A stretch of DNA of 64,000 nt. It comes from Monocercomonoides exilis PA203 (Eukaryota > Protista > Preaxostyla). Of the stretch, positions 2,226-63,411 are shown one piece after another; within the stretch, counting starts at the first letter, position 1; every line of letters begins with the position of its first letter. Location: contig LSRY02000022.1 of the NCBI GenBank assembly GCA_001643675.2, positions 62,001 to 126,000 on the forward strand. The letters run 5' to 3'. Below the pieces are notes generated by a model. That model was not told the origin of the DNA. It did no database searches and saw only the letters and a list, made by a program, of their open reading frames with translations. A program made the position numbers and the translations under genes.

Positions 2226-2229
2226 TATA

Positions 2230-12569: not shown

Positions 12570-12634
12570 TAAACCTGTGTGACGTGATAAAGATTTTGTC
12601 TTCACGTCCGTCACTAAATTTTTTTCACGTCAGT

Positions 12635-12666
<32 letters not shown>

Positions 12667-28777: not shown

Positions 28778-31700
28778 ATGAATTTTATACTTTATTTGTT
28801 TCTATTCCGAATAATCAGTCATACCAATTGTAATATTCTAAATAATGCACAACATTCACAAAACTATAATGTATATGTGCAAAGTGGAGAGGAAATGGAA
28901 ACGCCAGATGGAACAAAAGCAAAACCATATAGATCTATGAAAACTGCTTATGAGCAGCTTACAGGAGATGAAGAAACAGGAGGATATGTCATTAAAGTTA
29001 TAACAGCAGCTGGATTGCTTACAGTGGAAGCCAATACGTTTGCAAAAAAGACAGGAATTACGATAGAAGGAGTGGACAATGCAGCAGTAGAAGAAGAAAC
29101 AAACACAAAAGTGGAGATCAACTACGGCGCTACTCTTGAAACAGATCTGTTCACATGCAAAGAAATGGTGACATTCAAGCATTTGGTGTTTGGCTTCTCA
29201 GCAACATCTGGACAAACTGAAGGCGTATTCGCTCTTATTCATGCTGCTGAGGGATCGGTTTCTCTAACAATTGAGACCTGCGAGTTTAAGCGACCTGGAT
29301 CTGGGGACAATATTGGAATCCATCTTGTGAGAGTGAGTGCAGGTTCATTGACAATGACTGGAGTTGGTTGTGCAGATGAGGAAAATGTGGCTTCATTCAC
29401 AGCAACGCCATTTTTAGTTGACGGAACAACATCAACAGTAACATTGACCGGATTGAATCTGGAGAAGATTACATCAAGTTCAAGTGCTGTGATGAAAATC
29501 ACAAGTACAAGTGAGGTTGAGATTTCATTGAATAAATGCACATTTACAGAATGTACTTCAAGCGATACTACAACAGCGACAAGTGGAGCACTTTATGTTG
29601 AAAGCGAAAATGCTGGAAGCACTTTTACTATTGGAGGCACAGACAAAACGACATTTACTTCGTGCACTTGTACCAATGGGAAATCAGGTGGGATATATCT
29701 GAAAATGACAGGAATTGCAGGTGAGAAACAATTGAGCTGGGGCACTGGTGTAAAATTGGAGTTTAGTGAGTGCACTGCAACAGGGTCAAAGAGTACAGGA
29801 TTGTATCTTGAAGTACCCGTTAATCTTCATGAGAACATAGCCGCAACCATGAAATCAAGTTTTGCACAAAATTACAAACGAACTAGCCATGAGAGTGTTG
29901 TTGTTGCAAAAGGAGAAAATAATATCGAAGTTGATTTCACTGCAAAATATTTCGATCCAGAAGAACCGCCAGCATCTCCTTCAACAATGGCATATGTGCA
30001 AAGTGGAGAGGAAATGGAAACGCCAGATGGAACAAAAGCAAAACCATATAGATCTATGAAAACTGCTTATGAGCAGCTTACAGGAGATGAAGAAACAGGA
30101 GGATATGTCATTAAAGTTATAACAGCAGCTGGATTGCTTACAGTGGAAGCCAATACGTTTGCAAAAAAAGACAGGAATTACGATAGAAGGAGTGGACAAT
30201 GCAGCAGTAGAAGAAGAAACAAACACAAAAGTGGAGATCAACTACGGCGCTACTCTTGAAACAGATCTGTTCACATGCAAAGAAATGGTGACATTCAAGC
30301 ATTTGGTGTTTGGCTTCTCAGCAACATCTGGACAAACTGAAGGCGTATTCGCTCTTATTCATGCTGCTGAGGGATCGGTTTCTCTAACAATTGAGACCTG
30401 CGAGTTTAAGCGACCTGGATCTGGGGACAATATTGGAATCCATCTTGTGAGAGTGAGTGCAGGTTCATTGACAATGACTGGAGTTGGTTGTGCAGATGAG
30501 GAAAATGTGGCTTCATTCACAGCAACGCCATTTTTAGTTGACGGAACAACATCAACAGTAACATTGACCGGATTGAATCTGGAGAAGATTACATCAAGTT
30601 CAAGTGCTGTGATGAAAATCACAAGTACAAGTGAGGTTGAGATTTCATTGAATAAATGCACATTTACAGAATGTACTTCAAGCGATACTACAACAGCGAC
30701 AAGTGGAGCACTTTATGTTGAAAGCGAAAATGCTGGAAGCACTTTTACTATTGGAGGCACAGACAAAACGACATTTACTTCGTGCACTTGTACCAATGGG
30801 AAATCAGGTGGGATATATCTGAAAATGACAGGAATTGCAGGTGAGAAACAATTGAGCTGGGGCACTGGTGTAAAATTGGAGTTTAGTGAGTGCACTGCAA
30901 CAGGGTCAAAGAGTACAGGATTGTATCTTGAAGTACCCGTTAATCTTCATGAGAACATAGCCGCAACCATGAAATCAAGTTTTGCACAAAATTACAAACG
31001 AACTAGCCATGAGAGTGTTGTTGTTGCAAAAGGAGAAAATAATATCGAAGTTGATTTCACTGCAAAATATTTCGATCCAGAAGAACCGCCAGCATCTCCT
31101 TCAACAATGGCATATGTGCAAAGTGGAGAGGAAATGGAAACGCCAGATGGAACAAAAGCAAAACCATATAGATCTATGAAAACTGCTTATGAGCAGCTTA
31201 CAGGAGATGAAGAAACAGGAGGATATGTCATTAAAGTTATAACAGCAGCTGGATTGCTTACAGTGGAAGCCAATACGTTTGCAAAAAAAGACAGGAATTA
31301 CGATAGAAGGAGTGGACAATGCAGCAGTAGAAGAAGAAACAAACACAAAAGTGGAGATCAACTACGGCGCTACTCTTGAAACAGATCTGTTCACATGCAA
31401 AGAAATGGTGACATTCAAGCATTTGGTGTTTGGCTTCTCAGCAACATCTGGACAAACTGAAGGCGTATTCGCTCTTATTCATGCTGCTGAGGGATCGGTT
31501 TCTCTAACAATTGAGACCTGCGAGTTTAAGCGACCTGGATCTGGGGACAATATTGGAATCCATCTTGTGAGAGTGAGTGCAGGTTCATTGACAATGACTG
31601 GAGTTGGTTGTGCAGATGAGGAAAATGTGGCTTCATTCACAGCAACGCCATTTTTAGTTGACGGAACAACATCAACAGTAACATTGACCGGATTGAATCT

Positions 31701-34700
31701 GGAGAAGATTACATCAAGTTCAAGTGCTGTGATGAAAATCACAAGTACAAGTGAGGTTGAGATTTCATTGAATAAATGCACATTTACAGAATGTACTTCA
31801 AGCGATACTACAACAGCGACAAGTGGAGCACTTTATGTTGAAAGCGAAAATGCTGGAAGCACTTTTACTATTGGAGGCACAGACAAAACGACATTTACTT
31901 CGTGCACTTGTACCAATGGGAAATCAGGTGGGATATATCTGAAAATGACAGGAATTGCAGGTGAGAAACAATTGAGCTGGGGCACTGGTGTAAAATTGGA
32001 GTTTAGTGAGTGCACTGCAACAGGGTCAAAGAGTACAGGATTGTATCTTGAAGTACCCGTTAATCTTCATGAGAACATAGCCGCAACCATGAAATCAAGT
32101 TTTGCACAAAATTACAAACGAACTAGCCATGAGAGTGTTGTTGTTGCAAAAGGAGAAAATAATATCGAAGTTGATTTCACTGCAAAATATTTCGATCCAG
32201 AAGAACCGCCAGCATCTCCTTCAACAATGGCATATGTGCAAAGTGGAGAGGAAATGGAAACGCCAGATGGAACAAAAGCAAAACCATATAGATCTATGAA
32301 AACTGCTTATGAGCAGCTTACAGGAGATGAAGAAACAGGAGGATATGTCATTAAAGTTATAACAGCAGCTGGATTGCTTACAGTGGAAGCCAATACGTTT
32401 GCAAAAAAAGACAGGAATTACGATAGAAGGAGTGGACAATGCAGCAGTAGAAGAAGAAACAAACACAAAAGTGGAGATCAACTACGGCGCTACTCTTGAA
32501 ACAGATCTGTTCACATGCAAAGAAATGGTGACATTCAAGCATTTGGTGTTTGGCTTCTCAGCAACATCTGGACAAACTGAAGGCGTATTCGCTCTTATTC
32601 ATGCTGCTGAGGGATCGGTTTCTCTAACAATTGAGACCTGCGAGTTTAAGCGACCTGGATCTGGGGACAATATTGGAATCCATCTTGTGAGAGTGAGTGC
32701 AGGTTCATTGACAATGACTGGAGTTGGTTGTGCAGATGAGGAAAATGTGGCTTCATTCACAGCAACGCCATTTTTAGTTGACGGAACAACATCAACAGTA
32801 ACATTGACCGGATTGAATCTGGAGAAGATTACATCAAGTTCAAGTGCTGTGATGAAAATCACAAGTACAAGTGAGGTTGAGATTTCATTGAATAAATGCA
32901 CATTTACAGAATGTACTTCAAGCGATACTACAACAGCGACAAGTGGAGCACTTTATGTTGAAAGCGAAAATGCTGGAAGCACTTTTACTATTGGAGGCAC
33001 AGACAAAACGACATTTACTTCGTGCACTTGTACCAATGGGAAATCAGGTGGGATATATCTGAAAATGACAGGAATTGCAGGTGAGAAACAATTGAGCTGG
33101 GGCACTGGTGTAAAATTGGAGTTTAGTGAGTGCACTGCAACAGGGTCAAAGAGTACAGGATTGTATCTTGAAGTACCCGTTAATCTTCATGAGAACATAG
33201 CCGCAACCATGAAATCAAGTTTTGCACAAAATTACAAACGAACTAGCCATGAGAGTGTTGTTGTTGCAAAAGGAGAAAATAATATCGAAGTTGATTTCAC
33301 TGCAAAATATTTCGATCCAGAAGAACCGCCAGCATCTCCTTCAACAATGGCATATGTGCAAAGTGGAGAGGAAATGGAAACGCCAGATGGAACAAAAGCA
33401 AAACCATATAGATCTATGAAAACTGCTTATGAGCAGCTTACAGGAGATGAAGAAACAGGAGGATATGTCATTAAAGTTATAACAGCAGCTGGATTGCTTA
33501 CAGTGGAAGCCAATACGTTTGCAAAAAAAGACAGGAATTACGATAGAAGGAGTGGACAATGCAGCAGTAGAAGAAGAAACAAACACAAAAGTGGAGATCA
33601 ACTACGGCGCTACTCTTGAAACAGATCTGTTCACATGCAAAGAAATGGTGACATTCAAGCATTTGGTGTTTGGCTTCTCAGCAACATCTGGACAAACTGA
33701 AGGCGTATTCGCTCTTATTCATGCTGCTGAGGGATCGGTTTCTCTAACAATTGAGACCTGCGAGTTTAAGCGACCTGGATCTGGGGACAATATTGGAATC
33801 CATCTTGTGAGAGTGAGTGCAGGTTCATTGACAATGACTGGAGTTGGTTGTGCAGATGAGGAAAATGTGGCTTCATTCACAGCAACGCCATTTTTAGTTG
33901 ACGGAACAACATCAACAGTAACATTGACCGGATTGAATCTGGAGAAGATTACATCAAGTTCAAGTGCTGTGATGAAAATCACAAGTACAAGTGAGGTTGA
34001 GATTTCATTGAATAAATGCACATTTACAGAATGTACTTCAAGCGATACTACAACAGCGACAAGTGGAGCACTTTATGTTGAAAGCGAAAATGCTGGAAGC
34101 ACTTTTACTATTGGAGGCACAGACAAAACGACATTTACTTCGTGCACTTGTACCAATGGGAAATCAGGTGGGATATATCTGAAAATGACAGGAATTGCAG
34201 GTGAGAAACAATTGAGCTGGGGCACTGGTGTAAAATTGGAGTTTAGTGAGTGCACTGCAACAGGGTCAAAGAGTACAGGATTGTATCTTGAAGTACCCGT
34301 TAATCTTCATGAGAACATAGCCGCAACCATGAAATCAAGTTTTGCACAAAATTACAAACGAACTAGCCATGAGAGTGTTGTTGTTGCAAAAGGAGAAAAT
34401 AATATCGAAGTTGATTTCACTGCAAAATATTTCGATCCAGAAGAACCGCCAGCATCTCCTTCAACAATGGCATATGTGCAAAGTGGAGAGGAAATGGAAA
34501 CGCCAGATGGAACAAAAGCAAAACCATATAGATCTATGAAAACTGCTTATGAGCAGCTTACAGGAGATGAAGAAACAGGAGGATATGTCATTAAAGTTAT
34601 AACAGCAGCTGGATTGCTTACAGTGGAAGCCAATACGTTTGCAAAAAAGACAGGAATTACGATAGAAGGAGTGGACAATGCAGCAGTAGAAGAAGAAACA

Positions 34701-37700
34701 AACACAAAAGTGGAGATCAACTACGGCGCTACTCTTGAAACAGATCTGTTCACATGCAAAGAAATGGTGACATTCAAGCATTTGGTGTTTGGCTTCTCAG
34801 CAACATCTGGACAAACTGAAGGCGTATTCGCTCTTATTCATGCTGCTGAGGGATCGGTTTCTCTAACAATTGAGACCTGCGAGTTTAAGCGACCTGGATC
34901 TGGGGACAATATTGGAATCCATCTTGTGAGAGTGAGTGCAGGTTCATTGACAATGACTGGAGTTGGTTGTGCAGATGAGGAAAATGTGGCTTCATTCACA
35001 GCAACGCCATTTTTAGTTGACGGAACAACATCAACAGTAACATTGACCGGATTGAATCTGGAGAAGATTACATCAAGTTCAAGTGCTGTGATGAAAATCA
35101 CAAGTACAAGTGAGGTTGAGATTTCATTGAATAAATGCACATTTACAGAATGTACTTCAAGCGATACTACAACAGCGACAAGTGGAGCACTTTATGTTGA
35201 AAGCGAAAATGCTGGAAGCACTTTTACTATTGGAGGCACAGACAAAACGACATTTACTTCGTGCACTTGTACCAATGGGAAATCAGGTGGGATATATCTG
35301 AAAATGACAGGAATTGCAGGTGAGAAACAATTGAGCTGGGGCACTGGTGTAAAATTGGAGTTTAGTGAGTGCACTGCAACAGGGTCAAAGAGTACAGGAT
35401 TGTATCTTGAAGTACCCGTTAATCTTCATGAGAACATAGCCGCAACCATGAAATCAAGTTTTGCACAAAATTACAAACGAACTAGCCATGAGAGTGTTGT
35501 TGTTGCAAAAGGAGAAAATAATATCGAAGTTGATTTCACTGCAAAATATTTCGATCCAGAAGAACCGCCAGCATCTCCTTCAACAATGGCATATGTGCAA
35601 AGTGGAGAGGAAATGGAAACGCCAGATGGAACAAAAGCAAAACCATATAGATCTATGAAAACTGCTTATGAGCAGCTTACAGGAGATGAAGAAACAGGAG
35701 GATATGTCATTAAAGTTATAACAGCAGCTGGATTGCTTACAGTGGAAGCCAATACGTTTGCAAAAAAGACAGGAATTACGATAGAAGGAGTGGACAATGC
35801 AGCAGTAGAAGAAGAAACAAACACAAAAGTGGAGATCAACTACGGCGCTACTCTTGAAACAGATCTGTTCACATGCAAAGAAATGGTGACATTCAAGCAT
35901 TTGGTGTTTGGCTTCTCAGCAACATCTGGACAAACTGAAGGCGTATTCGCTCTTATTCATGCTGCTGAGGGATCGGTTTCTCTAACAATTGAGACCTGCG
36001 AGTTTAAGCGACCTGGATCTGGGGACAATATTGGAATCCATCTTGTGAGAGTGAGTGCAGGTTCATTGACAATGACTGGAGTTGGTTGTGCAGATGAGGA
36101 AAATGTGGCTTCATTCACAGCAACGCCATTTTTAGTTGACGGAACAACATCAACAGTAACATTGACCGGATTGAATCTGGAGAAGATTACATCAAGTTCA
36201 AGTGCTGTGATGAAAATCACAAGTACAAGTGAGGTTGAGATTTCATTGAATAAATGCACATTTACAGAATGTACTTCAAGCGATACTACAACAGCGACAA
36301 GTGGAGCACTTTATGTTGAAAGCGAAAATGCTGGAAGCACTTTTACTATTGGAGGCACAGACAAAACGACATTTACTTCGTGCACTTGTACCAATGGGAA
36401 ATCAGGTGGGATATATCTGAAAATGACAGGAATTGCAGGTGAGAAACAATTGAGCTGGGGCACTGGTGTAAAATTGGAGTTTAGTGAGTGCACTGCAACA
36501 GGGTCAAAGAGTACAGGATTGTATCTTGAAGTACCCGTTAATCTTCATGAGAACATAGCCGCAACCATGAAATCAAGTTTTGCACAAAATTACAAACGAA
36601 CTAGCCATGAGAGTGTTGTTGTTGCAAAAGGAGAAAATAATATCGAAGTTGATTTCACTGCAAAATATTTCGATCCAGAAGAACCGCCAGCATCTCCTTC
36701 AACAATGGCATATGTGCAAAGTGGAGAGGAAATGGAAACGCCAGATGGAACAAAAGCAAAACCATATAGATCTATGAAAACTGCTTATGAGCAGCTTACA
36801 GGAGATGAAGAAACAGGAGGATATGTCATTAAAGTTATAACAGCAGCTGGATTGCTTACAGTGGAAGCCAATACGTTTGCAAAAAAGACAGGAATTACGA
36901 TAGAAGGAGTGGACAATGCAGCAGTAGAAGAAGAAACAAACACAAAAGTGGAGATCAACTACGGCGCTACTCTTGAAACAGATCTGTTCACATGCAAAGA
37001 AATGGTGACATTCAAGCATTTGGTGTTTGGCTTCTCAGCAACATCTGGACAAACTGAAGGCGTATTCGCTCTTATTCATGCTGCTGAGGGATCGGTTTCT
37101 CTAACAATTGAGACCTGCGAGTTTAAGCGACCTGGATCTGGGGACAATATTGGAATCCATCTTGTGAGAGTGAGTGCAGGTTCATTGACAATGACTGGAG
37201 TTGGTTGTGCAGATGAGGAAAATGTGGCTTCATTCACAGCAACGCCATTTTTAGTTGACGGAACAACATCAACAGTAACATTGACCGGATTGAATCTGGA
37301 GAAGATTACATCAAGTTCAAGTGCTGTGATGAAAATCACAAGTACAAGTGAGGTTGAGATTTCATTGAATAAATGCACATTTACAGAATGTACTTCAAGC
37401 GATACTACAACAGCGACAAGTGGAGCACTTTATGTTGAAAGCGAAAATGCTGGAAGCACTTTTACTATTGGAGGCACAGACAAAACGACATTTACTTCGT
37501 GCACTTGTACCAATGGGAAATCAGGTGGGATATATCTGAAAATGACAGGAATTGCAGGTGAGAAACAATTGAGCTGGGGCACTGGTGTAAAATTGGAGTT
37601 TAGTGAGTGCACTGCAACAGGGTCAAAGAGTACAGGATTGTATCTTGAAGTACCCGTTAATCTTCATGAGAACATAGCCGCAACCATGAAATCAAGTTTT

Positions 37701-40700
37701 GCACAAAATTACAAACGAACTAGCCATGAGAGTGTTGTTGTTGCAAAAGGAGAAAATAATATCGAAGTTGATTTCACTGCAAAATATTTCGATCCAGAAG
37801 AACCGCCAGCATCTCCTTCAACAATGGCATATGTGCAAAGTGGAGAGGAAATGGAAACGCCAGATGGAACAAAAGCAAAACCATATAGATCTATGAAAAC
37901 TGCTTATGAGCAGCTTACAGGAGATGAAGAAACAGGAGGATATGTCATTAAAGTTATAACAGCAGCTGGATTGCTTACAGTGGAAGCCAATACGTTTGCA
38001 AAAAAGACAGGAATTACGATAGAAGGAGTGGACAATGCAGCAGTAGAAGAAGAAACAAACACAAAAGTGGAGATCAACTACGGCGCTACTCTTGAAACAG
38101 ATCTGTTCACATGCAAAGAAATGGTGACATTCAAGCATTTGGTGTTTGGCTTCTCAGCAACATCTGGACAAACTGAAGGCGTATTCGCTCTTATTCATGC
38201 TGCTGAGGGATCGGTTTCTCTAACAATTGAGACCTGCGAGTTTAAGCGACCTGGATCTGGGGACAATATTGGAATCCATCTTGTGAGAGTGAGTGCAGGT
38301 TCATTGACAATGACTGGAGTTGGTTGTGCAGATGAGGAAAATGTGGCTTCATTCACAGCAACGCCATTTTTAGTTGACGGAACAACATCAACAGTAACAT
38401 TGACCGGATTGAATCTGGAGAAGATTACATCAAGTTCAAGTGCTGTGATGAAAATCACAAGTACAAGTGAGGTTGAGATTTCATTGAATAAATGCACATT
38501 TACAGAATGTACTTCAAGCGATACTACAACAGCGACAAGTGGAGCACTTTATGTTGAAAGCGAAAATGCTGGAAGCACTTTTACTATTGGAGGCACAGAC
38601 AAAACGACATTTACTTCGTGCACTTGTACCAATGGGAAATCAGGTGGGATATATCTGAAAATGACAGGAATTGCAGGTGAGAAACAATTGAGCTGGGGCA
38701 CTGGTGTAAAATTGGAGTTTAGTGAGTGCACTGCAACAGGGTCAAAGAGTACAGGATTGTATCTTGAAGTACCCGTTAATCTTCATGAGAACATAGCCGC
38801 AACCATGAAATCAAGTTTTGCACAAAATTACAAACGAACTAGCCATGAGAGTGTTGTTGTTGCAAAAGGAGAAAATAATATCGAAGTTGATTTCACTGCA
38901 AAATATTTCGATCCAGAAGAACCGCCAGCATCTCCTTCAACAATGGCATATGTGCAAAGTGGAGAGGAAATGGAAACGCCAGATGGAACAAAAGCAAAAC
39001 CATATAGATCTATGAAAACTGCTTATGAGCAGCTTACAGGAGATGAAGAAACAGGAGGATATGTCATTAAAGTTATAACAGCAGCTGGATTGCTTACAGT
39101 GGAAGCCAATACGTTTGCAAAAAAAGACAGGAATTACGATAGAAGGAGTGGACAATGCAGCAGTAGAAGAAGAAACAAACACAAAAGTGGAGATCAACTA
39201 CGGCGCTACTCTTGAAACAGATCTGTTCACATGCAAAGAAATGGTGACATTCAAGCATTTGGTGTTTGGCTTCTCAGCAACATCTGGACAAACTGAAGGC
39301 GTATTCGCTCTTATTCATGCTGCTGAGGGATCGGTTTCTCTAACAATTGAGACCTGCGAGTTTAAGCGACCTGGATCTGGGGACAATATTGGAATCCATC
39401 TTGTGAGAGTGAGTGCAGGTTCATTGACAATGACTGGAGTTGGTTGTGCAGATGAGGAAAATGTGGCTTCATTCACAGCAACGCCATTTTTAGTTGACGG
39501 AACAACATCAACAGTAACATTGACCGGATTGAATCTGGAGAAGATTACATCAAGTTCAAGTGCTGTGATGAAAATCACAAGTACAAGTGAGGTTGAGATT
39601 TCATTGAATAAATGCACATTTACAGAATGTACTTCAAGCGATACTACAACAGCGACAAGTGGAGCACTTTATGTTGAAAGCGAAAATGCTGGAAGCACTT
39701 TTACTATTGGAGGCACAGACAAAACGACATTTACTTCGTGCACTTGTACCAATGGGAAATCAGGTGGGATATATCTGAAAATGACAGGAATTGCAGGTGA
39801 GAAACAATTGAGCTGGGGCACTGGTGTAAAATTGGAGTTTAGTGAGTGCACTGCAACAGGGTCAAAGAGTACAGGATTGTATCTTGAAGTACCCGTTAAT
39901 CTTCATGAGAACATAGCCGCAACCATGAAATCAAGTTTTGCACAAAATTACAAACGAACTAGCCATGAGAGTGTTGTTGTTGCAAAAGGAGAAAATAATA
40001 TCGAAGTTGATTTCACTGCAAAATATTTCGATCCAGAACAACCACCTAAACCACCTACTCAAATTTCAATTGTTTATGTTAAGTATAATGCTGAAAGCTC
40101 TGGTTTATCATTCAATGAACCAATTGGAAGTTTAATGAGTGCATACAATTTATTCTCTTTCTCATCAAATTTGAAGATGTATTCGATGAGAATAATTGCT
40201 AACGATGATATGATAAAGGCTGAAACAATATCTTTTGAGAGAAGTGAACAATTGACAATTGAAGGAATTATTAATGCTGAAGGAAAGAATGAAATTGCAA
40301 AGATGGATTGCAAGATTAATTCAGGAAGTAATTTGTTCACATGCAAAAAGAGTGTTACTTTCAAATACCTGTCATTTGCTTTTCCATTGTCATTGAAATC
40401 AAACGGAAAGAGTCAGTTTAATGAGGTGACAGATTCGCTGGCATTGATTGTCTCAGAGGGTGGAGATTCAAAGCTCACAATAAATGATTGTGTATTTGTT
40501 CGACCAAATGCAAAGGCAAATGAGGGAGAGAACATTGCAGACATTCATCTTGTGAAGGTGAAAGCAGGAGATGTGAGTTTGGAAACAGTGAGCTGTGTTG
40601 ATGGGGAAAGCAAAGCTTCATTCCAAAAGCCTCTGATAGATATTGAAGGAGCGAAAAGAGTGATACTGAAGGGAGTAAAGGTGAGCAATGTTGAAGTTGA

Positions 40701-42760: not shown

Positions 42761-44965
42761 AAGACATGGACAAAACCCGGGAAAGTCTAATGAATAACTC
42801 AAAAAAGAAAAAGTGAATAAAGGAAATTGATATTGAAAATAACAAACGCTTTCATATTGCTCTTCAATTATTCGATGCTATCTTTTTTTGAAAATATGTA
42901 ATTTCGAAATTTTTTTTTAGAATGTTTGGATCATAAAGCTATTATGTTTGCTTTTTCTTGCAATATGTCTTCTTTTCTTTCTTCATCGGAACTTTCAAAG
43001 GTTTTAGCCACTGCAGAATTTTGAAGATTTAATTCAAAAGTTGAAAAAATTAATTTTCTTCTTTCAAGAAAAGAGATTACACACAAAAGCATTATTTCAT
43101 CTGGCTTAGTTTCTTCTTCAGCTCTATATTGACATATATCTTCTTTAAATCAGGGAAGAGATCCCCAACACAATGGCAGACCGAATTTGTTCAACAAAGA
43201 TGAACAAGAAGAAATAGAAGACTGTGCCAAATCTCTTTTTCTTTCAACGGATAAAATTACATTCAAAGACATCATTAAAATAGTTTTGTTTTTGTTTAAA
43301 AATATATATTAACTTTTTTGATGTTGTATTTTCAGGCTGAACACGTCTTGCAATGAAAAAACCGAAACAAGTATGACAACAGCGAATTGGCAGAAATTTA
43401 TGAAAAATGGGCAAGATGGTTCATAAAAAGAAGCAATGCCTTGCAAATGGTAAAACCAAAATCCATTGATGTGAAAAGGTTGTTTGCATTTTCAACGGAA
43501 AACATTTCAGCGTGGTTTTCATTGCTGGGGGAAACAATAAGAACAAACAAAATTTGCGCCGATCTGATATTAAATATAGACGAAACAGGAGTCAGTTTGT
43601 GTCAATCCGATAACGATTTCGTTATCAAACGATCAGATCAAGAAGATCCAATGTTGCACTCTCAACAACATCAGCCCAACGCAACATTGGTTTTCAGAGT
43701 TTTTGCAGATGGATCTTCTATTAATCCAGTGATGATTTGGCCCTCAAAAACTGTACCTAAAGATCTTGCAGTATTAAAATATCATCGACTAGAAATAGTG
43801 GCCAACGGAAGCGGGTGGATGACAAAAAATGACTTTGAAGAAATCATGATAAAAAACATATTACCTACAGTTAACAAAAAAAGAATTGAACTTCATGGTT
43901 CGGAAGCGTCGGCGCTTATAATAATGGATGGGCATTCATCGAGGCTTTGCTGGCCTGTTATCACATGGTGTCGTGAACATTCAATCGAAATTATTATTCT
44001 TCCTTCGCACACCGCACATTTGACACAACCGCTTGATCGCTATGTGCTTGCGCAATTCAAAAAAAGACTGAATTCATCTTTTCATCCTCCAACCGAAAGC
44101 GGAATATCGTCATATCGAAAAGCTCTTGTGCCAGCATTGGCAGATGCAGTGAGTGCTGCGTTAGAATGTAGAACTATCAAAAAATCGTTCTACGCTTGCG
44201 GGATTGAGCCATTTGATCCGTCAGTTGTTTTAGACCGACTGCCCAATCAGTCTTCAATTACAAAAATATCTTCAATTAGTTCATCGGCCCATGCTTAAAA
44301 TGGAGTATTTAACATGAAAGTTTTAACAAGTGATGATTTTATTCAGGAGAACGAACTAAGAAAAGAAGGTTTGAATATTTTCATTAAATTTGAATGAAAT
44401 AATTATCTAATTTATTCTTATTTTATTGTTCCGAGAAAAAGATGAAAGGATATTGTGTAACTTGAAAGACAGTCTGAAAAAGCAAATATCAGAGAGGAAA
44501 GCAAACGAGGATAAATGCGATGGGAAAACAAAATGCAAGATATCAGAACAAACTCGTGAAGAAGAAATAGATGTATCTTCTTTGTTTTCAGGAGAAAAAC
44601 GAAAAAGAAAACAAGTGTCTGAAACAAAATGGGGAAAACTATTCTATTTCAGCTGTAAGTGACTTATCTTTTCAAACAATTTTGTTTTGCCACTTGATGA
44701 TAGAATTTTTTTTATTTTGTTCGATTATTTTCATATAGTCTCATATCAGCCAATGTTTCTTTTCGATAGTGATTTTGGATGCTCGTTTCATTTGTAATCA
44801 AGAAAAACATATTAAAAAAACATCGTATGATCATTTTTCAAATAAATATTTATTTTTGTTTATTTAAAAAAAAGAAATTAGGAAGTGGAGTCAATTGTTA
44901 AAAAACTTTTCAATTGATTGGACATTCCCGGGTTTTGTCCCTTTCCCGGGTTTTGTCCATGTCTT
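42761..44965 (+). mobile_element. Complete pogo/Tigger-like DDE_1 transposon (~2.2 kb), TA TSD
   Basis: 25-bp perfect TIR AAGACATGGACAAAACCCGGGAAAG (42761-42785) / 44941-44965, with a tandem inner TTCCCGGGTTTTGTCC copy at the right end. TA at 42759-42760 and 44966-44967. Confidence 0.9.
42965..44298 (+). pseudogene. DDE_1 transposase pseudogene with intron 43283-43335
   Basis: ATG 42965 and an N-terminal putative DNA-binding region with TGA stops. Catalytic motifs LNIDETG, GSGWMTK, IIMDGHSSR, LPSHTAHLTQPLDRYV. TAA at 44296 is probably premature. Confidence 0.88.
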
Positions 44966-45598
44966 TATATATGAAAATTTGAGATCATCAATCATTTATA
45001 TTCATTTTCGAAATCAAAGCAGTTTTATATGACACAGTTTTTTTTATTAAAAGTTATATACTAAAAAAACTCTGCATTTATAGATTGGAATAGGTTCGAA
45101 GGTTAACGTGACAGACCTTGAGTTAAGGGTTTTGTTCCCATTCTTTTTTCAGAGCTTGAACTCTTAAAAGTGACAAAATATTCAGCTCTGTAAATTATGT
45201 TCCACACAGTTCTTTCAAAAATATTATTCGATTTTTGATATTTTCAAATTGATTATTGCACAATAATGTCAGAATAATTATCATAATATAGCAAAAAAAG
45301 TCTGGAACAAATCTTTGTTTTTTTCATAAATGAATGAATTTCGCTCCATTAGCTCAATCTTTAAAAAATTCAGTGTTTCGTTTAAAAAAATATGGTTGAT
45401 AAGTCCATAAATGTTGTTAATCATTAAGTTTATAATTAGAGTCTTTCAGAGATAAATGTCATTTAAATAATCCAAAGAACTTTATGAAAACTTTGATTGT
45501 TCAAGAAAGTTATCTAATATTTGTCAAAATGATAAATATTCATGTTTTCGAATGATCCAATTGTTTACAAGAGATATAATATATTAATCACAAATTCT

Positions 45599-46385
45599 TC
45601 TCGATAAAAGATCAATCAATATTATCTATTTATGTATGTCTGATGGTAGTTGTTATTTTGTATAATAAGTTAGAATAAGCAGTGTGGAGAGATAGATGAT
45701 CGACACTTATTGCCAATAGAATTATCGATGACTATGAAGGCAGTGATGTTCTATAAAGAAGGAGTTATTGATAGGTGTAATCGAGATATATCTATAGCCG
45801 ACATACCATATCTCCAAGGAGGAGATTAGCTGAAAGATTCGTTTGAGGCGTTCAAGTTGGTGAAATTAGCGGGTAAATAAGTGTGAAAATTGGTGAAATC
45901 GTTTGTGAAATCGTAAATAAAAATAATTGATTTTGTTTTTTGTTTTATAGTAAATGGGTCGGAAGAAGATATACACGACTGTGGAAGAAGCGAAAGCTGC
46001 TCAACAGAAACAAATTAAACAGTATCAGGAAAAACGTAAGGAAGAAACAAAGTATTACAACGAACATGTATCTGACAAACAGAAGAAGAAGATTAATATA
46101 TTGAGGAGAAAGCTTATCGAAAGTGATGAGCTGTTAGATGAGTTGATGGAAAAAGTTAGTGAGTAAGGTGGACACGATTATATTTTTGGTTGAATGTGTT
46201 AACTGTTTTGCCTGCACAGGGTGGACAGGTTGAGCTGTACAGGTAACAAGTGTGTGCTATGGTGTGGAAATATTGGGTTAAATCTCCGTGCTGGAAGTGT
46301 GGACAGGTGAACCGGGTGGACCGGGTCAATTATATTCCAGAAATTATGTGTTCAAACGGGTTAACTGAGCAAAGTCGGAATAATA
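45599..46385 (+). repeat. Left TIR (787 bp)
   Basis: Reverse complement of 49311-50097; no mismatch seen by eye. Confidence 0.93.
45954..46166 (+). CDS. 70-aa basic helical protein within left TIR (putative DNA/terminus-binding)
   Basis: Intact ATG-TAA ORF MGRKKIYTTVEEAKAAQQKQIKQY..., preceded by a T-rich/AT-rich leader; identical in the right TIR. Function inferred. Confidence 0.75.
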   Translation: MGRKKIYTTVEEAKAAQQKQIKQYQEKRKEETKYYNEHVSDKQKKKINILRRKLIESDELLDELMEKVSE

Positions 46386-46513
46386 CATTTAATGTGAAAA
46401 TTAACTGTTATCATTGACTTTCGACGTTAACCCCGACGTCATCTTCCCCGTATATTACCGTTTCAAAAATAAATATGTTTAAAAAAAATTTTGTTTTTTT
46501 AATTTTTTTTAAA

Positions 46514-48856
46514 ATGACAAACCCCTAAACAGACTCTGACAACGTAATCCAACAATTAATTGATTCAATGTCAACAGAACAATAAACGCTGGGAGAATGA
46601 ATAAAAGATCACCTTGTTGACATGTTCGACTTCAAGATATACTCTGACAAGAAACGGGGCCAAAGACACACTGGAACAGCTGTCGATATCAGAAAATGAG
46701 AGGATTTCCGTGTTGTTGATGTTGATATTAACAAATCCCTTCAAGCTGAACAAACGAAAACCATCAGGAATTCCATTCTCGAGAAACTTCCATGAAATGT
46801 CGGACTTGTTCAAACAGCTCATGGTTGTCTTCACATTTATTGTGAGCTGTGTGGTTATCCCCTCAAATGTTCTTCACAAATCAAAGTGTTCACGAGTTGG
46901 CAGTTCGAAATCGACATTTTTGCAGGTATTGGAGATGGTTAACAGAGGCTTGTTGTTCAAGATGACTTTTCATTTAGAGAGATGAAAGATGGCAAGAGAT
47001 TCATCACCAAATACATTCCCCTCAACAATTCCAGAGAGCTCAGATATCTATCATCACTTGAGAGTGTTCTTGACATTTTCGGTATTAATCATAAAACCGA
47101 GAATACATCAGCGATAATTGCAGCTGAACCACACAATCTTCTCACACAAGATGGTGTCGTTGATATGTCTCCAACTGTCGCTCTTGCTCTTGTCGATGGA
47201 CTCAAAGATGTTGAAATACATAACGATACAAGTTCTCTGTTTCTTAATTCTGAGTTAACTCTTTTGCCGTTATTTGCAGCTCTCAACTTTCTCGTCAACA
47301 TTGACGGTTTCGACAACCAATCGATAGATTTTCTTAACACTCAAATCAAAGACTCAGCTGCTCAAACAGCAAATGCAATCACTCACCATGAAGAGAAACA
47401 AAACATATACAGAGATAACAAGTCACATCCATTTGTTCTACAAAAGATTGTCAAGAGATGGAATCCAACATATTGCAACGGTGTGATTATTCCACTTCTC
47501 AGAAAAGAGAATGAGAAAAAAAAAGAACCTCCACGAGAGATCACTGTTCATTAAATCGATCTCAACTCATCGTTCTCGTTCTCTGAAATCAGGGATAAAG
47601 CTTGTCGAAAACAATACTCCACACTGTCTGAAGTCGCTGAAGATCTCACAAAAGTTCAGAGTTTTATTGAAGCAAGGATGGAATTCATTGTGAAAGAGTT
47701 TGACATTCACTCCTCTAATTATTCAATTTCAATAAAGACAAAATCAGCAATGTGTGAATCGTTCAAAACAATAAAACTCTGGCATGATGATAATAAGACT
47801 CTCACAGTTGAGACAGCTTTCCAACAACACTCTCATGTTCTATCGATCGATAGGGTGAAGTTCTTCTCAGACAACCCTCGAATATTCTCTCTGTTCCATG
47901 GGTTCAAATACCAAATGGCAAACGAACAAAACGAAGAAATCATCAAACCATTCCTTGATTTCACACGAGAAGTTATCGCCAACAACAACGATGAACTCTG
48001 TCAATACATCCTCTGTTGTATTGAGTCAATTGTTCAAAATCCTGGTCATAAAGCAGAAACATCACTTGTTTTCAAAGGTTTGCAGGGTATTGGATAGAAT
48101 GTCTGGACAAATGTTCTTGCTGAACTGTTGGCAGGATATTCATGTCCGAATGTCACAGAGATTGCAGAACTGTCAGGACAGTTCAACTCCATCGTCGAAG
48201 GGAAAATGTTGATTGTACTTAATGAATTGAAGAATGTTGGAGATGATCGAACAGCTAACTTTGACGCATTGAAGAGTTCAATCACAAATTCAACAATCAG
48301 AATTAATGAGAAGAATCAGCCAAGAAGAACAGCTGAAAACGTTGCTAATTTCATATTTGTGACAAATCACACGTACCCTGTTAAGATTGAGATTGGTGAC
48401 AGAAGATATGTTGTTTGTGATTGTGACTCAAAATATATGAACAATCTCACATTCTTCAAGGATTTCACAAACTCTTTCAACAATGAATTCTATTAACGAC
48501 TTCTCTGTTATTTCATCATCAAAGATCTCACCAATTTCAACACTATGGCTATTCCAACAAATGAGGCAAAGGAAGATATCATTGCAGCATCACTCTCTGT
48601 CATCGATGTGTTCTGTCAGGAGCATTTCAATAAACTCAAAGAAGGGTGGAGATGTTCTGAAGCACTATGTTTCAGACCAGTTGAATACAAGAACGATCGC
48701 TCATTCCAACTGGTAATTAAAGACAAATGTGAGAGAATACGAGTAGATGGAAGGGGAGATCAAGTGTGGTGTTATAAACTTAATCCAGAGAATGAACAAC
48801 TCCTCAAACGACGAGAAGATGAAGATGACACGGACTGTTCTGTGGAAATTACCTAA
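46514..48856 (+). pseudogene. AEP (Prim-Pol type) primase-polymerase fused to D5-like/DUF5906-type SF3 helicase; 780 codons with 9 in-frame stops
   Basis: One frame with no indels. AEP motifs RVVDVD, QTAHGCLHIY and EIDIF. Helicase motifs FSLFHGF, KGLQGIG*N (Walker A, Lys codon now TAG), LIVLNE (Walker B), FIFVTN (sensor) and GDRRY. Stops at 46526, 46583, 46598, 46697, 46793, 46940, 47552, 48095 and 48494. Confidence 0.88.
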
Positions 48857-49310
48857 ACATATTCGTTTTTTTGAAAATCATTGATTCACCAACTATGCAA
48901 CTTGTGTGTGACACCTGTTATATTCCACCAACGATTCCATGTGGCAATGTGGCAAAATGATAACACTCATAAAAAACAAAAATATCTCAAAATCATACCA
49001 AATTAAGGGGAAAATGCTCATGTTGGCAGAAATGGCATGTTGGCAGCTCTTTTCAGATGAAATTAAAAGATCCGGACTGCCGGACTACCGGACTACGCTT
49101 CCAGCACGGAGATTTTAGCCAATATTTCCCTTCCCCAAGTATCTCGATATTTCCACAATTCGGTGTCCGGTTCACCGATTGACACTTTTTCAAACAAAAA
49201 TATATATGTTGACAATCAACTATAACGTCATCGTGACTACTGTTTGATACAATCTATAATACAACAAACGCGATTAGTCTGTTATATTTCGTCAATTTTC
49301 ACATAAAATA

Positions 49311-50097
49311 TATTATTCCGACTTTGCTCAGTTAACCCGTTTGAACACATAATTTCTGGAATATAATTGACCCGGTCCACCCGGTTCACCTGTCCACACT
49401 TCCAGCACGGAGATTTAACCCAATATTTCCACACCATAGCACACACTTGTTACCTGTACAGCTCAACCTGTCCACCCTGTGCAGGCAAAACAGTTAACAC
49501 ATTCAACCAAAAATATAATCGTGTCCACCTTACTCACTAACTTTTTCCATCAACTCATCTAACAGCTCATCACTTTCGATAAGCTTTCTCCTCAATATAT
49601 TAATCTTCTTCTTCTGTTTGTCAGATACATGTTCGTTGTAATACTTTGTTTCTTCCTTACGTTTTTCCTGATACTGTTTAATTTGTTTCTGTTGAGCAGC
49701 TTTCGCTTCTTCCACAGTCGTGTATATCTTCTTCCGACCCATTTACTATAAAACAAAAAACAAAATCAATTATTTTTATTTACGATTTCACAAACGATTT
49801 CACCAATTTTCACACTTATTTACCCGCTAATTTCACCAACTTGAACGCCTCAAACGAATCTTTCAGCTAATCTCCTCCTTGGAGATATGGTATGTCGGCT
49901 ATAGATATATCTCGATTACACCTATCAATAACTCCTTCTTTATAGAACATCACTGCCTTCATAGTCATCGATAATTCTATTGGCAATAAGTGTCGATCAT
50001 CTATCTCTCCACACTGCTTATTCTAACTTATTATACAAAATAACAACTACCATCAGACATACATAAATAGATAATATTGATTGATCTTTTATCGAGA
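49311..50097 (-). repeat. Right TIR (787 bp)
   Basis: Reverse complement of 45599-46385. Confidence 0.93.
49530..49742 (-). CDS. 70-aa basic protein, identical copy in right TIR
   Basis: Same peptide as 45954-46166. Confidence 0.75.
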   Translation of the reverse strand: MGRKKIYTTVEEAKAAQQKQIKQYQEKRKEETKYYNEHVSDKQKKKINILRRKLIESDELLDELMEKVSE

Positions 50098-50475
50098 TGG
50101 ATCTATAGGTGATATTCCATATCTCTCACATTAGGATTGCTTTTTCCACATTTTTGAATAAATGGAATTTGTGACTTTAGTTTATTTTAAAAGAAAATTT
50201 TAATTTTCAATTTTTTTTTTGAAGAACTGAAAAGAAAATAATGAAACTTTGAATGAAAAAGTTGGAAACAAACTCATTTTTGTTTCTTCAATAATGAAGT
50301 TGACTTTGAATGATTATGAAAACAATTTTTGAAATTAAAACTATGTGTGATTCATTAAAAATAAACCTGCGAAAATATAACACCACACCATTAAGAATGA
50401 AGCATTCTTTCAGCAGATAATCTCAATATCCTTTTCAGAACTAGTATTGATTCTTTTCAACAATAATTGAATATA

Positions 50476-50852
50476 CAGTTTGTACAAAAAATTTCTGACA
50501 AGATCGATATCTCAATAACTGCATAAGGAATAATTCTGACAATTTTCCTCAAAATACATCTCATCAACGCAAACTCATTTGATATACAAATCTTTCAAAG
50601 CAGCTTCATTTGTGCTCAGAAATAATTATTTTTGAAATTTCGGAAAAATTCAAAATCCTATTTCTCCGAGAATTCAAATATCATTTTTTCTGAGCACAAA
50701 TGAAGCTGCTTTGAAAGATTTGTATATCAAATGAGTTTGTATTGATGAGATATATTTTGAGGAAAATTATCAGAATTATTCCTCTTGCAGTTATTGTGAA
50801 ATCGATCTTGTCCGGTATTTTTTGCGATGTCCTGTATTTTTAGCATAAACTG
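50476..50852. mobile_element. Tc1/mariner-pogo-type foldback MITE (CAGTTT...AAACTG, TA TSD)
   Basis: TA|CAGTTT at 50474-50481 and AAACTG|TA at 50847-50854. Internal arms ~50497-50622 and ~50687-50812 are inverted with scattered mismatches. Confidence 0.8.
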
Positions 50853-58050: not shown

Positions 58051-58704
58051 TTTTTCATTATTGGTTCTTTTTTTATTTTTGCATGCCAATCATTCAATAA
58101 AGCTAGATGGACCTCAACACTCGGATGAGGGTGTTTATAAAACAAAGACATTAAATTACAGGTTTGTTTTTTAAATTTTGTTTATTTTTCGTAGAGATAC
58201 AGCAAATTTTTTTATTTTTAAGTGACTTTTTTCAGCCGAGGAAGCATCTATCTATAATAATACTTTGAAACATGCATTTGGCTCCACATCTCAGATTTTT
58301 TTAATATTTTGTGCATGTGCTGTTCCCCATGTGTTGACCCCATATTCGACCCTTATTCCGCCTCATGCTCCCCACCTGGATGGATATAATTCAAAAAAGT
58401 CGAAAAAGACCAAAAATGTGACCCACAAATCTGGACTCCCAGAAGGCTCTGCAACTTTCTTTTATTTTTATTTTGAAAATTGGATTTTTCCCACACCTAA
58501 TACCAAATATTTCTGGAATCGCTTCAGCCGTTGTTTTTCTGTGATTTTTTCAACACGATTTTTTTATCATTTTTGACAAGAAAATAGATTTTCATTGAAC
58601 GAGTTTTTCATTAACTATTAACATGTATATCATGTGTTATTCTCCAAAATAATGTCAAATATTCTTTATTGAATCATATTCAATCATTCTGATGGTATTG
58701 ATAT

Positions 58705-61700
58705 GGGTCATTATTTTTCATATCGTAACTTTGTTCGAAGAAAGATCTTTTTTTTCATAATTGTGGTATGAGCAATAAAAAGCTCAAATATGTGTTAATA
58801 GGTGAAATGAAAAGGAAGTGTGAAGGAATTATTGAAAAATAAGTGAAATTGAGAAAATCTTGAAAATACCATTACAACATTTATTTTTTGGCAATTTTTA
58901 ATAAATGAATTATTTAGTATTACAACACCCAACAAGAGCAATTGTTGTTTGAAAATAATTATAATTTGAGTATGAATTAGTGTTATTACTTTTTTTTGTG
59001 ATTTGAATTAAACAACATCTGAAAATAAATGATTGATTGATTTATTACATTTTTGTGTAAAATAGCAAGGTTTATAATTTTTGTGGTTATCTTTTTGATG
59101 AAATAATTAATGTTATTAACGATGTATTTCTATTTTGAGCGATTTGAGATATTTATGCGAAGCATTGATAAACAAATATTCCATAAAAAAAGGAAAATCG
59201 AATTCGAAGCGAAGTCGAATATGCAGTTATTTGTGATTAATGTTGATTGATTTTAAAAATTGAATGAAGGATGAAGAGCTTGGGGATTGCAATCTTTTAT
59301 TGTATTGTGTTGTTGTTTCTCGTTGTTTTTTTTATTTGTTATTCGTTCCAAACATTGTGCATTATTTTATTTATTGAAATGGTTATTGTTTTTTTAAATA
59401 AATTCTTTTCTTATGTTAGAAAAAATCAATCTTTTCACTGAATTTTATAGAGATTTATCTTTTTTTTGAAAAGGTGAAATGATAAAATAAAAATCGAAAC
59501 ACTTGAATATGATGCCTCATTTCACATATGACACGGTTACGAAAAACAATGTTTTGTATTTTTTGAAGGCAGTGAACATATGAAATGAGAGAAAAAAACG
59601 AAACAGATAAAACAAATAAAAAATTCAAAGAAAAGCTCTAGAAATCATTGAAAGAAAAAAAGATTCAATAATGCTGTTTTGTTTCTTTTTTAATCAATTT
59701 GCAGCAATTTTTTGACAGAATAATTTCATGTTGCTCTGTTGTTTTGAACTTCATAGCGCTTTTTGAAAAGTTAAAACTCAGAAAAGAAAATGCTGAATTT
59801 GATTTATTTCTGATTTGCGACGCTTTTTAAGAATGGATCACAACATGAAACAATAAACAAAAAAGCCATAAAAAAACTAATATCAAATGAGATTCTACGG
59901 TTAATCTGATATCAAACGTGTGCTTTTGCAGCTTTTGTATTTTTCAGCAGAGCTTATTATTCCACTCACTTTCATTTTTCTTTCCTTTTATTCTCACTCC
60001 ATCATTCTCGCTTCCTCCTCTTTCTCTTTCTTTCCTCTTCTTGATTCTGCAGCTCAATAATTATGTCCTGCTCCAATTTCTTTTGCCACTCCCATTCCTC
60101 TTCTTCTCTTTGCTTCTCCCTTTTGTCCTCCCCTTATTTCGTTATGAACTTCTACAGGTTGCCTTGAAGCACTTTTCTCTTTTCCAGCTTCAGTGAATGC
60201 TTCACTGTCTGCTCTCTCGCAATGCACCACGCCTGGACCCCTTCTCTGAGAGTGATCTTCTCAAACACATCCTTCGCAACTTCAATTGAAAGATCAATTA
60301 TTACCGGCCTTTTTTTCATCTTCTCCTCATCTTTCATCCATCCTGCTCAGCTCCTCGACTGCCTCCTTTTCCAATGCTCCGAAATTTCCTCGTGTCCCTC
60401 AGTGACCTCTTCTCTCCTTCTGAGCTTATCGAACCAGATGTCCCATCGAGAGAAGATGACAAAGAATTGAAAAAAGCTGCCTGTGACAAAGCAGTTGAAG
60501 CTGGATGCTTCTGCTTCATCAGCCCCTGGTGCAGCATCAGATACACTTCCCTCATGCGCTTGATGCGCTTAAAGATGAATGCTGAATTCTTGGCCTCTGG
60601 TGCTTCTGCAGCTCCTTTGAGCTCCTTCTCTTTCTCTTCTTTGCATGCCTTCTTGCTCCATTTCTGCTCCAACTCCTTCCTTTTCTCCTCTTTCTCCTTC
60701 CTGATTCTTGAATACGACTTTTCTTCCATCTTGAACGTGCGTGTGAAGAACGGCAGAAGCTCCTCGTCTGACGTGAGAAGGTTCATCACAGACATCGACG
60801 GGTTTGCCTTCTACCCTGCTGCTGCTTTCCCCTGTGATGCACGATTCTGAGACACGTTGCCTTGCTGGCTCTGGTTCTAGCTCCGGCTCAGCTGCCCCAC
60901 TCCCTCTTCAGCACTTCCTTCGCTCTTCTCTTTATCATTTGCTGCCATCTTCTCGTTTTCTCCTCTTTCGGAGTCTGTCTGTTGGCTTCGTGGCTGTCCT
61001 GCTGTGTTTGTTTCGTTGACGGGATCAACTGCTCAATCTCATTGCTGTTTGCTTCATCAGCCTTCAGCATCGTCTGCTGCTGAATGAGAATATTCAGCTC
61101 ATCCTGCTCACTTTCCTCCTGCGAATCGCTCTCTCCCTCTGAACTCTCTTCTCTTTTTGCTTGTCTTCGTATTTTTGAAGCTTTTCAGAATTTTGCTGGC
61201 TTCCTTCGCTGCAACTGTCAGATGACGAGGCTTTCTGTACTGCTTCTTCATTCGCTTAGTCGCTTGCTCCACTTTCGCTTGCGTTCCCTTCTCCTTTCTA
61301 AGCTTTCCCTTTCTCCTTCAACTTCTCTTTTCTCCTTCTTTCCACGTCTTCTGGTGTGACGCTCGGAACCGATGCAATGAAAGATGAGATCTCCAACGGC
61401 TTCCCGCCAACATCTTCTTTGCCACAGATATTTTGTGCAGCTCTTCCTCTTCTTTCTCCCTTCTTTTTATCTCCTGCTGCTCTTTAAACTTCTTCATCTC
61501 ATCGTCGATCGCCTTCTGCCCAATCAACCTGATCGATGTGGGCTTTGCATTTCCATCTCTTCCTTTCTTCTTCAGAAACTCGTTCCTCTTCTTCTCATCC
61601 TGCTTCTCCAGTCTCTTCTTCTTCTTCTCTTTTCATTCTGTTTCATTTTCATAAACGCTGTCTTGTGTTTAATTCATCTGGCGATCCTTCTTCAAAGCTC

Positions 61701-62806
61701 TCAATCTATCAACAATTCCTTCAACAGCCTCAAAAAACTCACTTTTTGGCTTTCTCCATTTTCTCTTCTTCGCTTTCCTCCTCCTCTTCCTCCTCCACAT
61801 TCTCTTTCACTCCCCGTCTGCCCCATCCTCCCATTTCCTCCAAACAGTTTCCCACACACATTTCCACCCCTTCAAACCCCTTTCTGCGTGATGTTCCAAA
61901 ATGTCCCTCTGCACCCACCCAGCTCAAACACCCCCACCTCCTTGCCTCTCCCGATCTCCACACCACATCCCCTCACCACAACCACACTCCCCCTCAAATA
62001 AAACGCACTCCTCCCAATCATATCTTCAAACAGCTCAATCCATACCAACTCAACTGTCGTGTTCCTTAATTCCCTCATTTAAAAATGTTCATCTTCTTCC
62101 TTTTTCTTCATTTCATGGTGCCAATTGGCTGAAAACATCTAAAGAATAATCCTAATATCTAAATAATAAAACTGAAAAAAAAGTTAAATCCTTTTCAACA
62201 ATAGAAAAAGAAAAAAACAAACACCTCTGATTGTTTTTGTCCTTTAGAATTTTTCATTTTCGTCCATTTTCGTCTTAAAAAATATCAAAAATCCTTATAT
62301 AAATCCGTCAGCTCCGTTTTACATAATATTCCATTTGTTGTTTCATTACTTCGCATAAATATCTCAAATCGCTCAAAATAGAAATACATCGTTAATAACA
62401 TTAATTATTTCATCAAAAAGATAACCACAAAAATTATAAACCTTGCTATTTTACACAAAAATGTAATAAATCAATCAATCATTTATTTTCAGATGTTGTT
62501 TAATTCAAATCACAAAAAAAAGTAATAACACTAATTCATACTCAAATTATAATTATTTTCAAACAACAATTGCTCTTGTTGGGTGTTGTAATACTAAATA
62601 ATTCATTTATTAAAAATTGCCAAAAAATAAATGTTGTAATGGTATTTTCAAGATTTTCTCAATTTCACTTATTTTTCAATAATTCCTTCACACTTCCTTT
62701 TCATTTCACCTATTAACACATATTTGAGCTTTTTATTGCTCATACCACAATTATGAAAAAAAAGATCTTTCTTCGAACAAAGTTACGATATGAAAAATAA
62801 TGACCC
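58705..62806. mobile_element. 4.1-kb element with ~460-bp perfect TIRs, GGG...CCC termini flanked by AT(AT), carrying a decayed gene
   Basis: 58701-59162 is the reverse complement of 62349-62810. Junctions ATAT|GGGTCA and TGACCC|ATAT. No transposase recognised. Confidence 0.8.
59900..62270 (-). pseudogene. Decayed K/E-rich coiled-coil cargo gene of unknown function
   Basis: - strand ORF fragments 60152-60337, 60334-60795, 60888-61070, 61318-61527 and 61739-62078, separated by stops/frameshifts. A putative first exon (ATGGACGAAAATG...) near 62267 is followed by a GT-AG intron. Confidence 0.5.
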
Positions 62807-63411
62807 ATATAAATTTTATTTGAAGTTCAAAATTAGGCCTCTGCGACACACTTTTTTTGAGTGCAATTTGTCGGTCGAGAAATTATTCATTTGTCGAAAA
62901 TTTTGAAATGATTGTTTTTTCCCTAATTTTGCAATTCTTGAAAATATCTGACTTTCCTCAACTTCGCTGTTCCTATGTTTTTTTTTTTTTTCTTTTCTTT
63001 TTTTTTTCCTCACCATAATAATTATATTTTATGTGTTTTGAAAACAAATGAGAAATTTTTGAAAAAACTGGAGAAGATATATGAAAGGAATCAAACAGAT
63101 TGTTGTGTTCAAAAAAATACAATGATTTGGAATGGAAGTTTTTTAGGATATCATTGCTGCTGATGTGGATTTGATTAATAGAGATAATTTTAACGTTGTT
63201 ATTTTAAATGCTCTAAGAAAATTTTCTCATGAATAAGAATTGTTCTATTCATCATCTTCTTCTTCTTCCTCTTCCATTTCACCAGAACCTTTGCTTCCGC
63301 CCACTTCAACATGGCCATCTTCCATTGACACTCAATATCCATTTCGTACCACTTCATCAAAGCATCTCACATTACTCTCCACAACTCTATCTTTCATATT
63401 ACAAGTGCCTT

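Follow-up and report, generated by a model that had tools for sequence, protein, structure and literature searches.

In a stretch of 64,000 nucleotides of Monocercomonoides exilis PA203 DNA (the window), a 4,557-bp element (45570..50126, + strand) carries two identical inverted arms, which form most of its terminal inverted repeats (TIRs), around a replication gene that has decayed into a pseudogene. This situation is best explained, with a probability estimated at about 65%, by gene conversion from one arm to the other, which made the two identical in place, in an element that was already dead. The left arm (45599..46385, + strand) and the right arm (49311..50097, - strand) agree at 787 of 787 positions, whereas 88-93 differences would be expected at the decay rate of the centre (P < 1e-38). 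Both arms carry the same non-family letters at nine distinct positions, among the 40 rows displayed out of 1,697, and the density of such private letters, about 11 per kb, is that of the gene (26 rows in 2,343 bp), a rough figure given that the displayed rows were not chosen by the analyst. The absence of arm differences, combined with private changes common to both arms, indicates that the arms aged and were homogenised late. The initial annotation had argued that neutral decay should have diverged the arms and that they were homogenised after it, and both arguments are borne out. Arm-to-arm conversion of inverted repeats is a known process; the TIR family concerned is apparently undescribed.

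Architecture and relatives of the element

The element, which represents a single decayed copy within a multi-copy TIR family, was delimited on the basis of the TIR pair and of contigs ending at its border. The full TIR measures 836 bp (45570-46405 and 49291-50126), and its 14 mismatches all fall in the outer 29 bp (11) and the inner 20 bp (3), with none in the middle 787 bp; the borders of the identical tract are sharp and lie inside the TIR. Perfect TIRs with identical arms and a small ORF had initially been described at 46514..48856. The identity of the arms stands, the TIRs as a whole are imperfect, and the arms lie outside this interval. Beyond the identical tract are found a degenerate left tip (45570..45598, + strand), which starts with AGAGATAT, a family-like right tip (50098..50126, - strand), close to the loose-end consensus of run X1 at 50084 and to the internal copy of the tip, and the inner end of the left TIR (46386..46405, + strand; 3/20 mismatches), which would have escaped conversion. 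This internal inverted copy of the 35-bp tip is located at 45780..45814 (- strand, 83% identity, E 1e-4), with its mirror at 49882-49916, and could serve as a hairpin origin or represent a nested MITE-like unit. A small basic ORF of 70 codons occupies 45954..46166 (+ strand) in the left arm and, in an identical copy, 49530..49742 (- strand) in the right arm. Read contigs of other copies stop at 50126 with mixed flanks (seven records in run X1, five in run X2), which identifies this position as the end of the family. Between the TIRs there is only one long frame, the primase-helicase, and no integrase, PolB, ATPase, protease or capsid gene; the spacers on either side of it (108 and 434 bp) have no long frame, and the right one (48857..49290) includes a degenerate 43-bp copy of an arm segment at 49087-49129.

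Target duplications of more than three bases were not detected at the element, the best candidates being two to three bases (CA/ACA) within four bases of the ends. The same scan recovers 8-bp target duplications at two young elements within the window; the original duplication of the element could have been erased by decay. Two 3.48-kb copies in opposite orientation (12570-16050 and 17859-21340), differing only in homopolymer lengths, each have their own short TIRs and 8-bp target duplication and look like young insertions, presumably of the hAT type given the length of the duplication.

The central gene (46514..48856, + strand, 780 codons) is a primase-polymerase/SF3 (D5-like, NrS-1-like) helicase pseudogene. 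When its protein was used as query with X at the stops, the best five of 94 matches were Monocercomonoides exilis proteins with 71-87% identity, followed by full-length matches at 28-45% from metagenomes, Trichomonas, Histomonas and Streblomastix. Pfam assigns DUF5906 and VapE-like domains to the pseudogene protein. The structure predicted for a stop-free sister gene, P0096 (mean pLDDT 83), matches the fold of the NrS-1 helicase region (E 3e-19) and of the full-length AsfvPrimPol (E 7e-13), and the helicase part also matches NrS-1 by sequence (E 3e-16). These matches to the NrS-1 primase-polymerase-helicase and to the ASFV PrimPol are at about 12-20% identity and, unlike these enzymes, the copy of the window is untranslatable. 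P0096 itself has 42/763 differences and reads through the end of the family. Four other annotated sister proteins (P0003-P0006) show large internal gaps resembling predicted introns that skip lesions, so that their divergence figures are likely underestimates. The summed depth of gene contigs in run X1, about 1,400-3,400 against 30-43 for single-copy contigs, suggests that the family numbers dozens of copies, even if depth is not a copy number.

The pseudogene is 40% identical over its full length to a Trichomonas vaginalis protein whose cluster, of 198 members, is named Prim-pol domain family. The T. vaginalis Maverick Tv1.6, in the published account consulted in part, has a primase-domain ORF and was analysed in 2,716 copies (PMC7845603); we infer that the 198-member cluster corresponds to this ORF. 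Close relatives among 77 metagenome loci are limited to L009 and L010; five of 85 loci were examined. L009 adjoins an A32 ATPase ORF (E 2e-6, above the Pfam cut-off) and L010 an rve integrase-like ORF (E 2e-4, under the Pfam cut-off), and both neighbours are Maverick hallmarks. No TIRs were seen at either locus, both sequences being short. In L010 (12-4079), the primase-helicase relative and the adjacent integrase-like ORF each require table 6 (TAA/TAG = Gln) to be read as open frames. Among viral contigs no close relative was identified (0/13 candidates), eight loci matching the helicase only, at 27-32%. From sequence similarity and gene context, the element likely belongs to a multi-copy family related to, or derived from, Mavericks.

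Mavericks follow an AG...CT terminus rule, and the element shares these termini with the Mavericks/Polintons of metamonads (T. vaginalis Tv1.6 and the Streblomastix elements). Its TIRs are long, as are those of Mavericks/Polintons, for which 100-1,000 bp is given in the part of the source consulted (PMC4196379). Mavericks are 15-30 kb in size, in contrast to 4.56 kb here, which leaves no room for an integrase, PolB, ATPase, protease and capsid. Autonomous Mavericks have a gene for a protein-primed PolB and a retroviral-like integrase, whereas the element has neither, its single long frame being the primase-helicase and an integrase-like ORF being found only beside the relative L010. Their target-site duplication is of 6 bp (5 bp in Trichomonas Mavericks), against at most two to three bases here. 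The small ORF inside each TIR is a further difference from Mavericks/Polintons. A Maverick-derived non-autonomous element should have a gene related to Maverick-borne genes, and such a gene is present, as judged from the context of the two close relatives. The element works like a non-autonomous Maverick derivative and not like an autonomous Maverick.

No description of the TIR family was found in the literature; supplementary repeat libraries or Repbase may already list it. The assembly paper of the species reports 35% unclassified repeats and, in the part of it available, does not contain the term poxvirus (PMC8767320), and Monocercomonoides is not named in the available portion of the main text of a survey of protist endogenous viruses (PMC10120064).

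Decay of the replication gene

The frame 46514-48856 contains nine internal stops, in agreement with the initial annotation: five TAA (46526, 46583, 46940, 47552 and 48494), three TGA (46598, 46697 and 46793) and one TAG (48095). The TAG lies within GLQGIG*N, which we take to be the Walker A motif, at the site of the Lys of the relatives, as had been noted; it is the eighth stop by position, and not the last, since the TAA at 48494 follows. Stop 46940 falls in a 301-base contig of run X4 without any difference, which indicates that the stops there are not assembly errors.

The pseudogene differs from the leave-one-out family majority at 94/769 residues (about 12%), while the other nine annotated copies are off the majority at 3.9-9.8% of residues; the decay of the pseudogene at the DNA level works out at 5.6-5.9%. 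With the codons that it uses, stops should make up 5.7-7.1% of amino-acid-changing substitutions, so that 5.4-6.7 stops are expected for the nine seen (P(>=9) = 0.09-0.22), and an excess of stops was rejected. The earlier count of zero indels is confirmed by a gap-free alignment with the majority of the nine other copies. About three indels were predicted (P(0) = 0.03-0.06), from six gaps per 257 substitutions in eight de-duplicated in-gene contig pieces, drawn from the ten in-gene pieces with differences in a table of 32; the absence of indels is at most a mild oddity. The 86 single-step changes of the centre are spread over the mutation classes with none dominant (A>T 18, G>A 14, G>T 10, C>T 10, A>G 8), and RIP-like or single-class hypermutation was rejected. 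These comparisons attribute the stops to an ordinary, neutral-like decay.

The stops could in principle also represent sense codons, in a variant code like that of Streblomastix where TAA and TAG encode Gln, or result from programmed mutation. According to the portion of the survey consulted, a related oxymonad does use TAA/TAG = Gln (PMC10120064), and the metagenome relative L010 has an open frame only with table 6. At the nine stops, the family nevertheless has Q, Q, R, C, R, K, E, K and E, with Gln at only two of the six TAA/TAG sites, and the gene terminates with a TAA, while the scatter of changes over all mutation classes speaks against a programmed process. Recoding of the stops is ruled out by this family alignment, and the whole explanation deserves practically no credence.

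The decayed haplotype looks private to this locus, with little sign of amplification, judging from the derived residues of the centre, of which only 8/71 are common to any of the nine other copies. The residual depth of non-family letters in run X1, over 26 gene rows (16 computed, 10 read off the table), is single-copy for ten (22-40, flank 43), zero or near zero for seven and higher for nine.

Origin of the identical arms

An identity of this kind might also arise from the assembly itself, if the genomic arms differ and short-read polishing drove both to one sequence. For the published long-read assembly of the species, which may be the source of the window, polishing consisted of Nanopolish and ten rounds of Pilon; its authors report, in the part of the paper available, an uneven polishing of multi-copy regions (PMC8767320). 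The identical tract is moreover the portion that lies beyond short-read anchoring, and a contig of run X3 (record 15, depth 5.9), which runs from the left flank through 45381-45810, shows 12 differences whose positions are not displayed; it could reflect an arm difference, an allele, a paralogue or a chimeric contig. Against such an artefact, single-copy-depth contigs with zero differences cross the left junction in runs X1 and X2 and the right junction in run X2, and they end just where identity starts, at 45628 (X1, X2) and 50068 (X2). These stops are exactly 30 bases into the identical tract, the merging point of a 31-mer graph (k=31 being taken from the description of the tool), and support a real identity at the outer border. 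In run X2, the depth at three arm-private letters is about twofold, with a residual non-family depth of 225 at 46351-46352 and 253 at 45638 for 91-92 in single-copy flank contigs. Arms that are 11-12% apart would moreover be mapped uniquely. Polishing may have erased a few arm-specific SNPs, yet homogenisation would still be needed. None of the short contigs of the four runs spans an arm. The letter of the window at 46097/49599 occurs in no contig of the four runs, an absence that is not diagnostic since the letter of the window is likewise absent from run X1 for 6/26 gene rows. On this evidence an assembly artefact is judged unlikely.

The tips of the element bear on how the arms became identical. 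Left and right tips differ at 11/29 positions (G+C 5 on the left, 10 on the right) and, with the internal tip copy as third sequence, the left tip is the derived one, its divergence exceeding the prediction from decay (P 2-3e-4). The presence in each arm of an inverted copy of the tip of that arm allows the outer 246 bases to fold back on the right, a capacity lost on the left (hairpin z of -2.76 and -0.13, respectively). This excess divergence of the left tip, the sharp outer border at 45599 and the absence of a target duplication would all suit a variant mechanism, in which, after loss or replacement of the left end, the left arm was rebuilt once from the right arm by inverted-duplication repair; the left tip would then be older or foreign DNA, and repeated conversion would be unnecessary. 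The left tip nevertheless resembles a decayed homologue of the right one, with which it is in ungapped register and shares its first eight bases, 6/11 of its differences being G>A or C>T. Contigs of other copies also have arm sequence upstream of the gene (rows 46376-46426). Such a single rebuilding is regarded as improbable.

Arm-to-arm gene conversion could have proceeded as follows. The family would have spread once, borrowing the integrase of a full Maverick, and each copy would then have decayed independently, to about 6% of bases at the present locus. Later, one arm would have broken and been repaired with the other arm, at a distance of 2.9 kb, as template, through a single long tract or repeated ones; 45599-46385 or its mirror would thereby have been overwritten, with the outer 29 bases and the inner 20 left untouched. 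To judge by its degenerate tip, the left arm may be the overwritten one, and the small ORF would have stayed open by chance, without selection.

The arms of human Y palindromes, which are spaced inverted repeats, reportedly undergo gene conversion. As in the gene-converted inverted repeats of the human Y and of Caenorhabditis, the arms of the element are more alike than their age predicts and share private changes; unlike them, they are the TIRs of a dead transposon-like element of a protist and show no sign of function. Arm-to-arm conversion between inverted repeats is documented in Caenorhabditis in the part of the report consulted (PMC1803023). For Galileo, a foldback-like element of Drosophila mojavensis, the portion of the study consulted gives TIRs that are 98-100% identical within one copy and on average 92-97% between copies, and proposes repair of one TIR from another together with conversion (PMC3573991). 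Galileo is an element with a P-superfamily transposase, possibly still active, whereas the present element has a primase-helicase and an internal clock (about 6% decay).

The small ORF is, by its sequence relationships, a real gene of the family. It is 86% identical to MONOS_17995, whose accession adjoins that of a sister primase lying on a contig of equal length, has five distant relatives (E 2e-5 to 9e-4) and retains 10/10 invariant columns; Pfam and Atlas searches returned nothing firm. Selection on it was not detected, either from its residue differences or from the chance of its being open. It differs from its sister at 10/69 residues, against 13-20% for the dead gene versus nine sisters (for the matching pair, Fisher p 0.33), and the probability that it lacks stops by chance alone is 0.28-0.45. 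Two arm-private positions fall within it, and both alter a residue for which the sister protein has the family residue. In run X1, the depth over the small-ORF part at 45984-46154 is about four times that of the centre, before the mirror arm is added, and shorter derivatives or other families may carry this segment.

The initial annotation had further proposed that the element is non-autonomous and may still be mobilised by a helper, with correction of its arms via a panhandle intermediate and retention of only the small protein. A racket-like single-stranded intermediate has been proposed for Polintons, in the part of the source consulted (PMC4196379). There is one sister gene free of stops; the small ORF retains all its invariant columns, in addition to having real relatives, and the greater depth of its part of the arm may reflect numerous shorter derivatives. 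The stop-free sister is nevertheless itself altered, as described above, and the small ORF is as diverged as the dead gene and open with a probability expected from chance. Racket-like replication and integration would both depend on the very ends of an element, and it is precisely the termini that are least alike here. A target duplication of 5-6 bp is absent, and the residual depths at the 26 private letters of the gene (ten single-copy, seven lower and nine higher) also count against this reading. Mobility of this kind is therefore considered very improbable. Of the two routes of homogenisation put forward at the outset, intramolecular gene conversion remains the best fit, and panhandle correction is disfavoured by a tract that excludes the termini. 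The degenerate left tip, the lack of a long target duplication and the few derived residues shared with other copies argue against continued mobility, and the absence of detectable constraint against retention of the small protein. The arms are roughly as far from the family as the centre and the small ORF appears unconstrained, which counts against a mobile parasite and leaves the homogenisation of the arms standing.

A second element and the meaning of TIR identity

An unrelated element located 9 kb away (58701-62810) displays the same pattern, with 462-bp identical inverted arms and a weak similarity just past the tract. Its centre is K/E-rich and coding-like on the minus strand, and is broken into frames of at most 158 residues. 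A homologue search with this centre found none, so that its decay is deduced from the broken frames only. The recurrence of the pattern in an unrelated element points to the host rather than to the machinery of the TIR family.

The window contains other repeated structures. A 1,119-bp coding unit is repeated in tandem about ten times at 28873-40046, in a likely surface-protein gene, the copies being 99.9% identical, with single-base frame changes between some of them. DDE_1 transposase frames are found at 401-1198 (E 6e-14) and at 43387-44298 (E 4e-12), the latter flanked by 31-bp inverted repeats at 42755 and 44971, and imperfect MITE-like palindromes at 2253-2569 (317 bp) and 50485-50824 (340 bp).

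A broader proposal combines two ideas and is doubtful as a whole, even if worth considering. This protist would overwrite spaced inverted repeats genome-wide, long-dead and unrelated elements keeping perfect TIRs on either side of decayed centres, and the family would represent an undescribed class of primase-helicase-only mini-Mavericks, with hairpin-forming ends and a small gene in each TIR, replicated without PolB and using a borrowed integrase. If overwriting is indeed genome-wide, TIR identity would be no guide to the age of an element.

The element provides no evidence of a living parasite. It offers instead a clean case with an internal clock, in which the age of the copy can be read from the dead gene (about 6% decay) while the TIRs look brand new, and it warns against dating elements, or calling them active, from TIR identity. 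The family adds a reduced, primase-only relative to the Mavericks of metamonads, and its dozens of sister copies in one genome would allow the length and the rate of conversion tracts to be measured in a protist.
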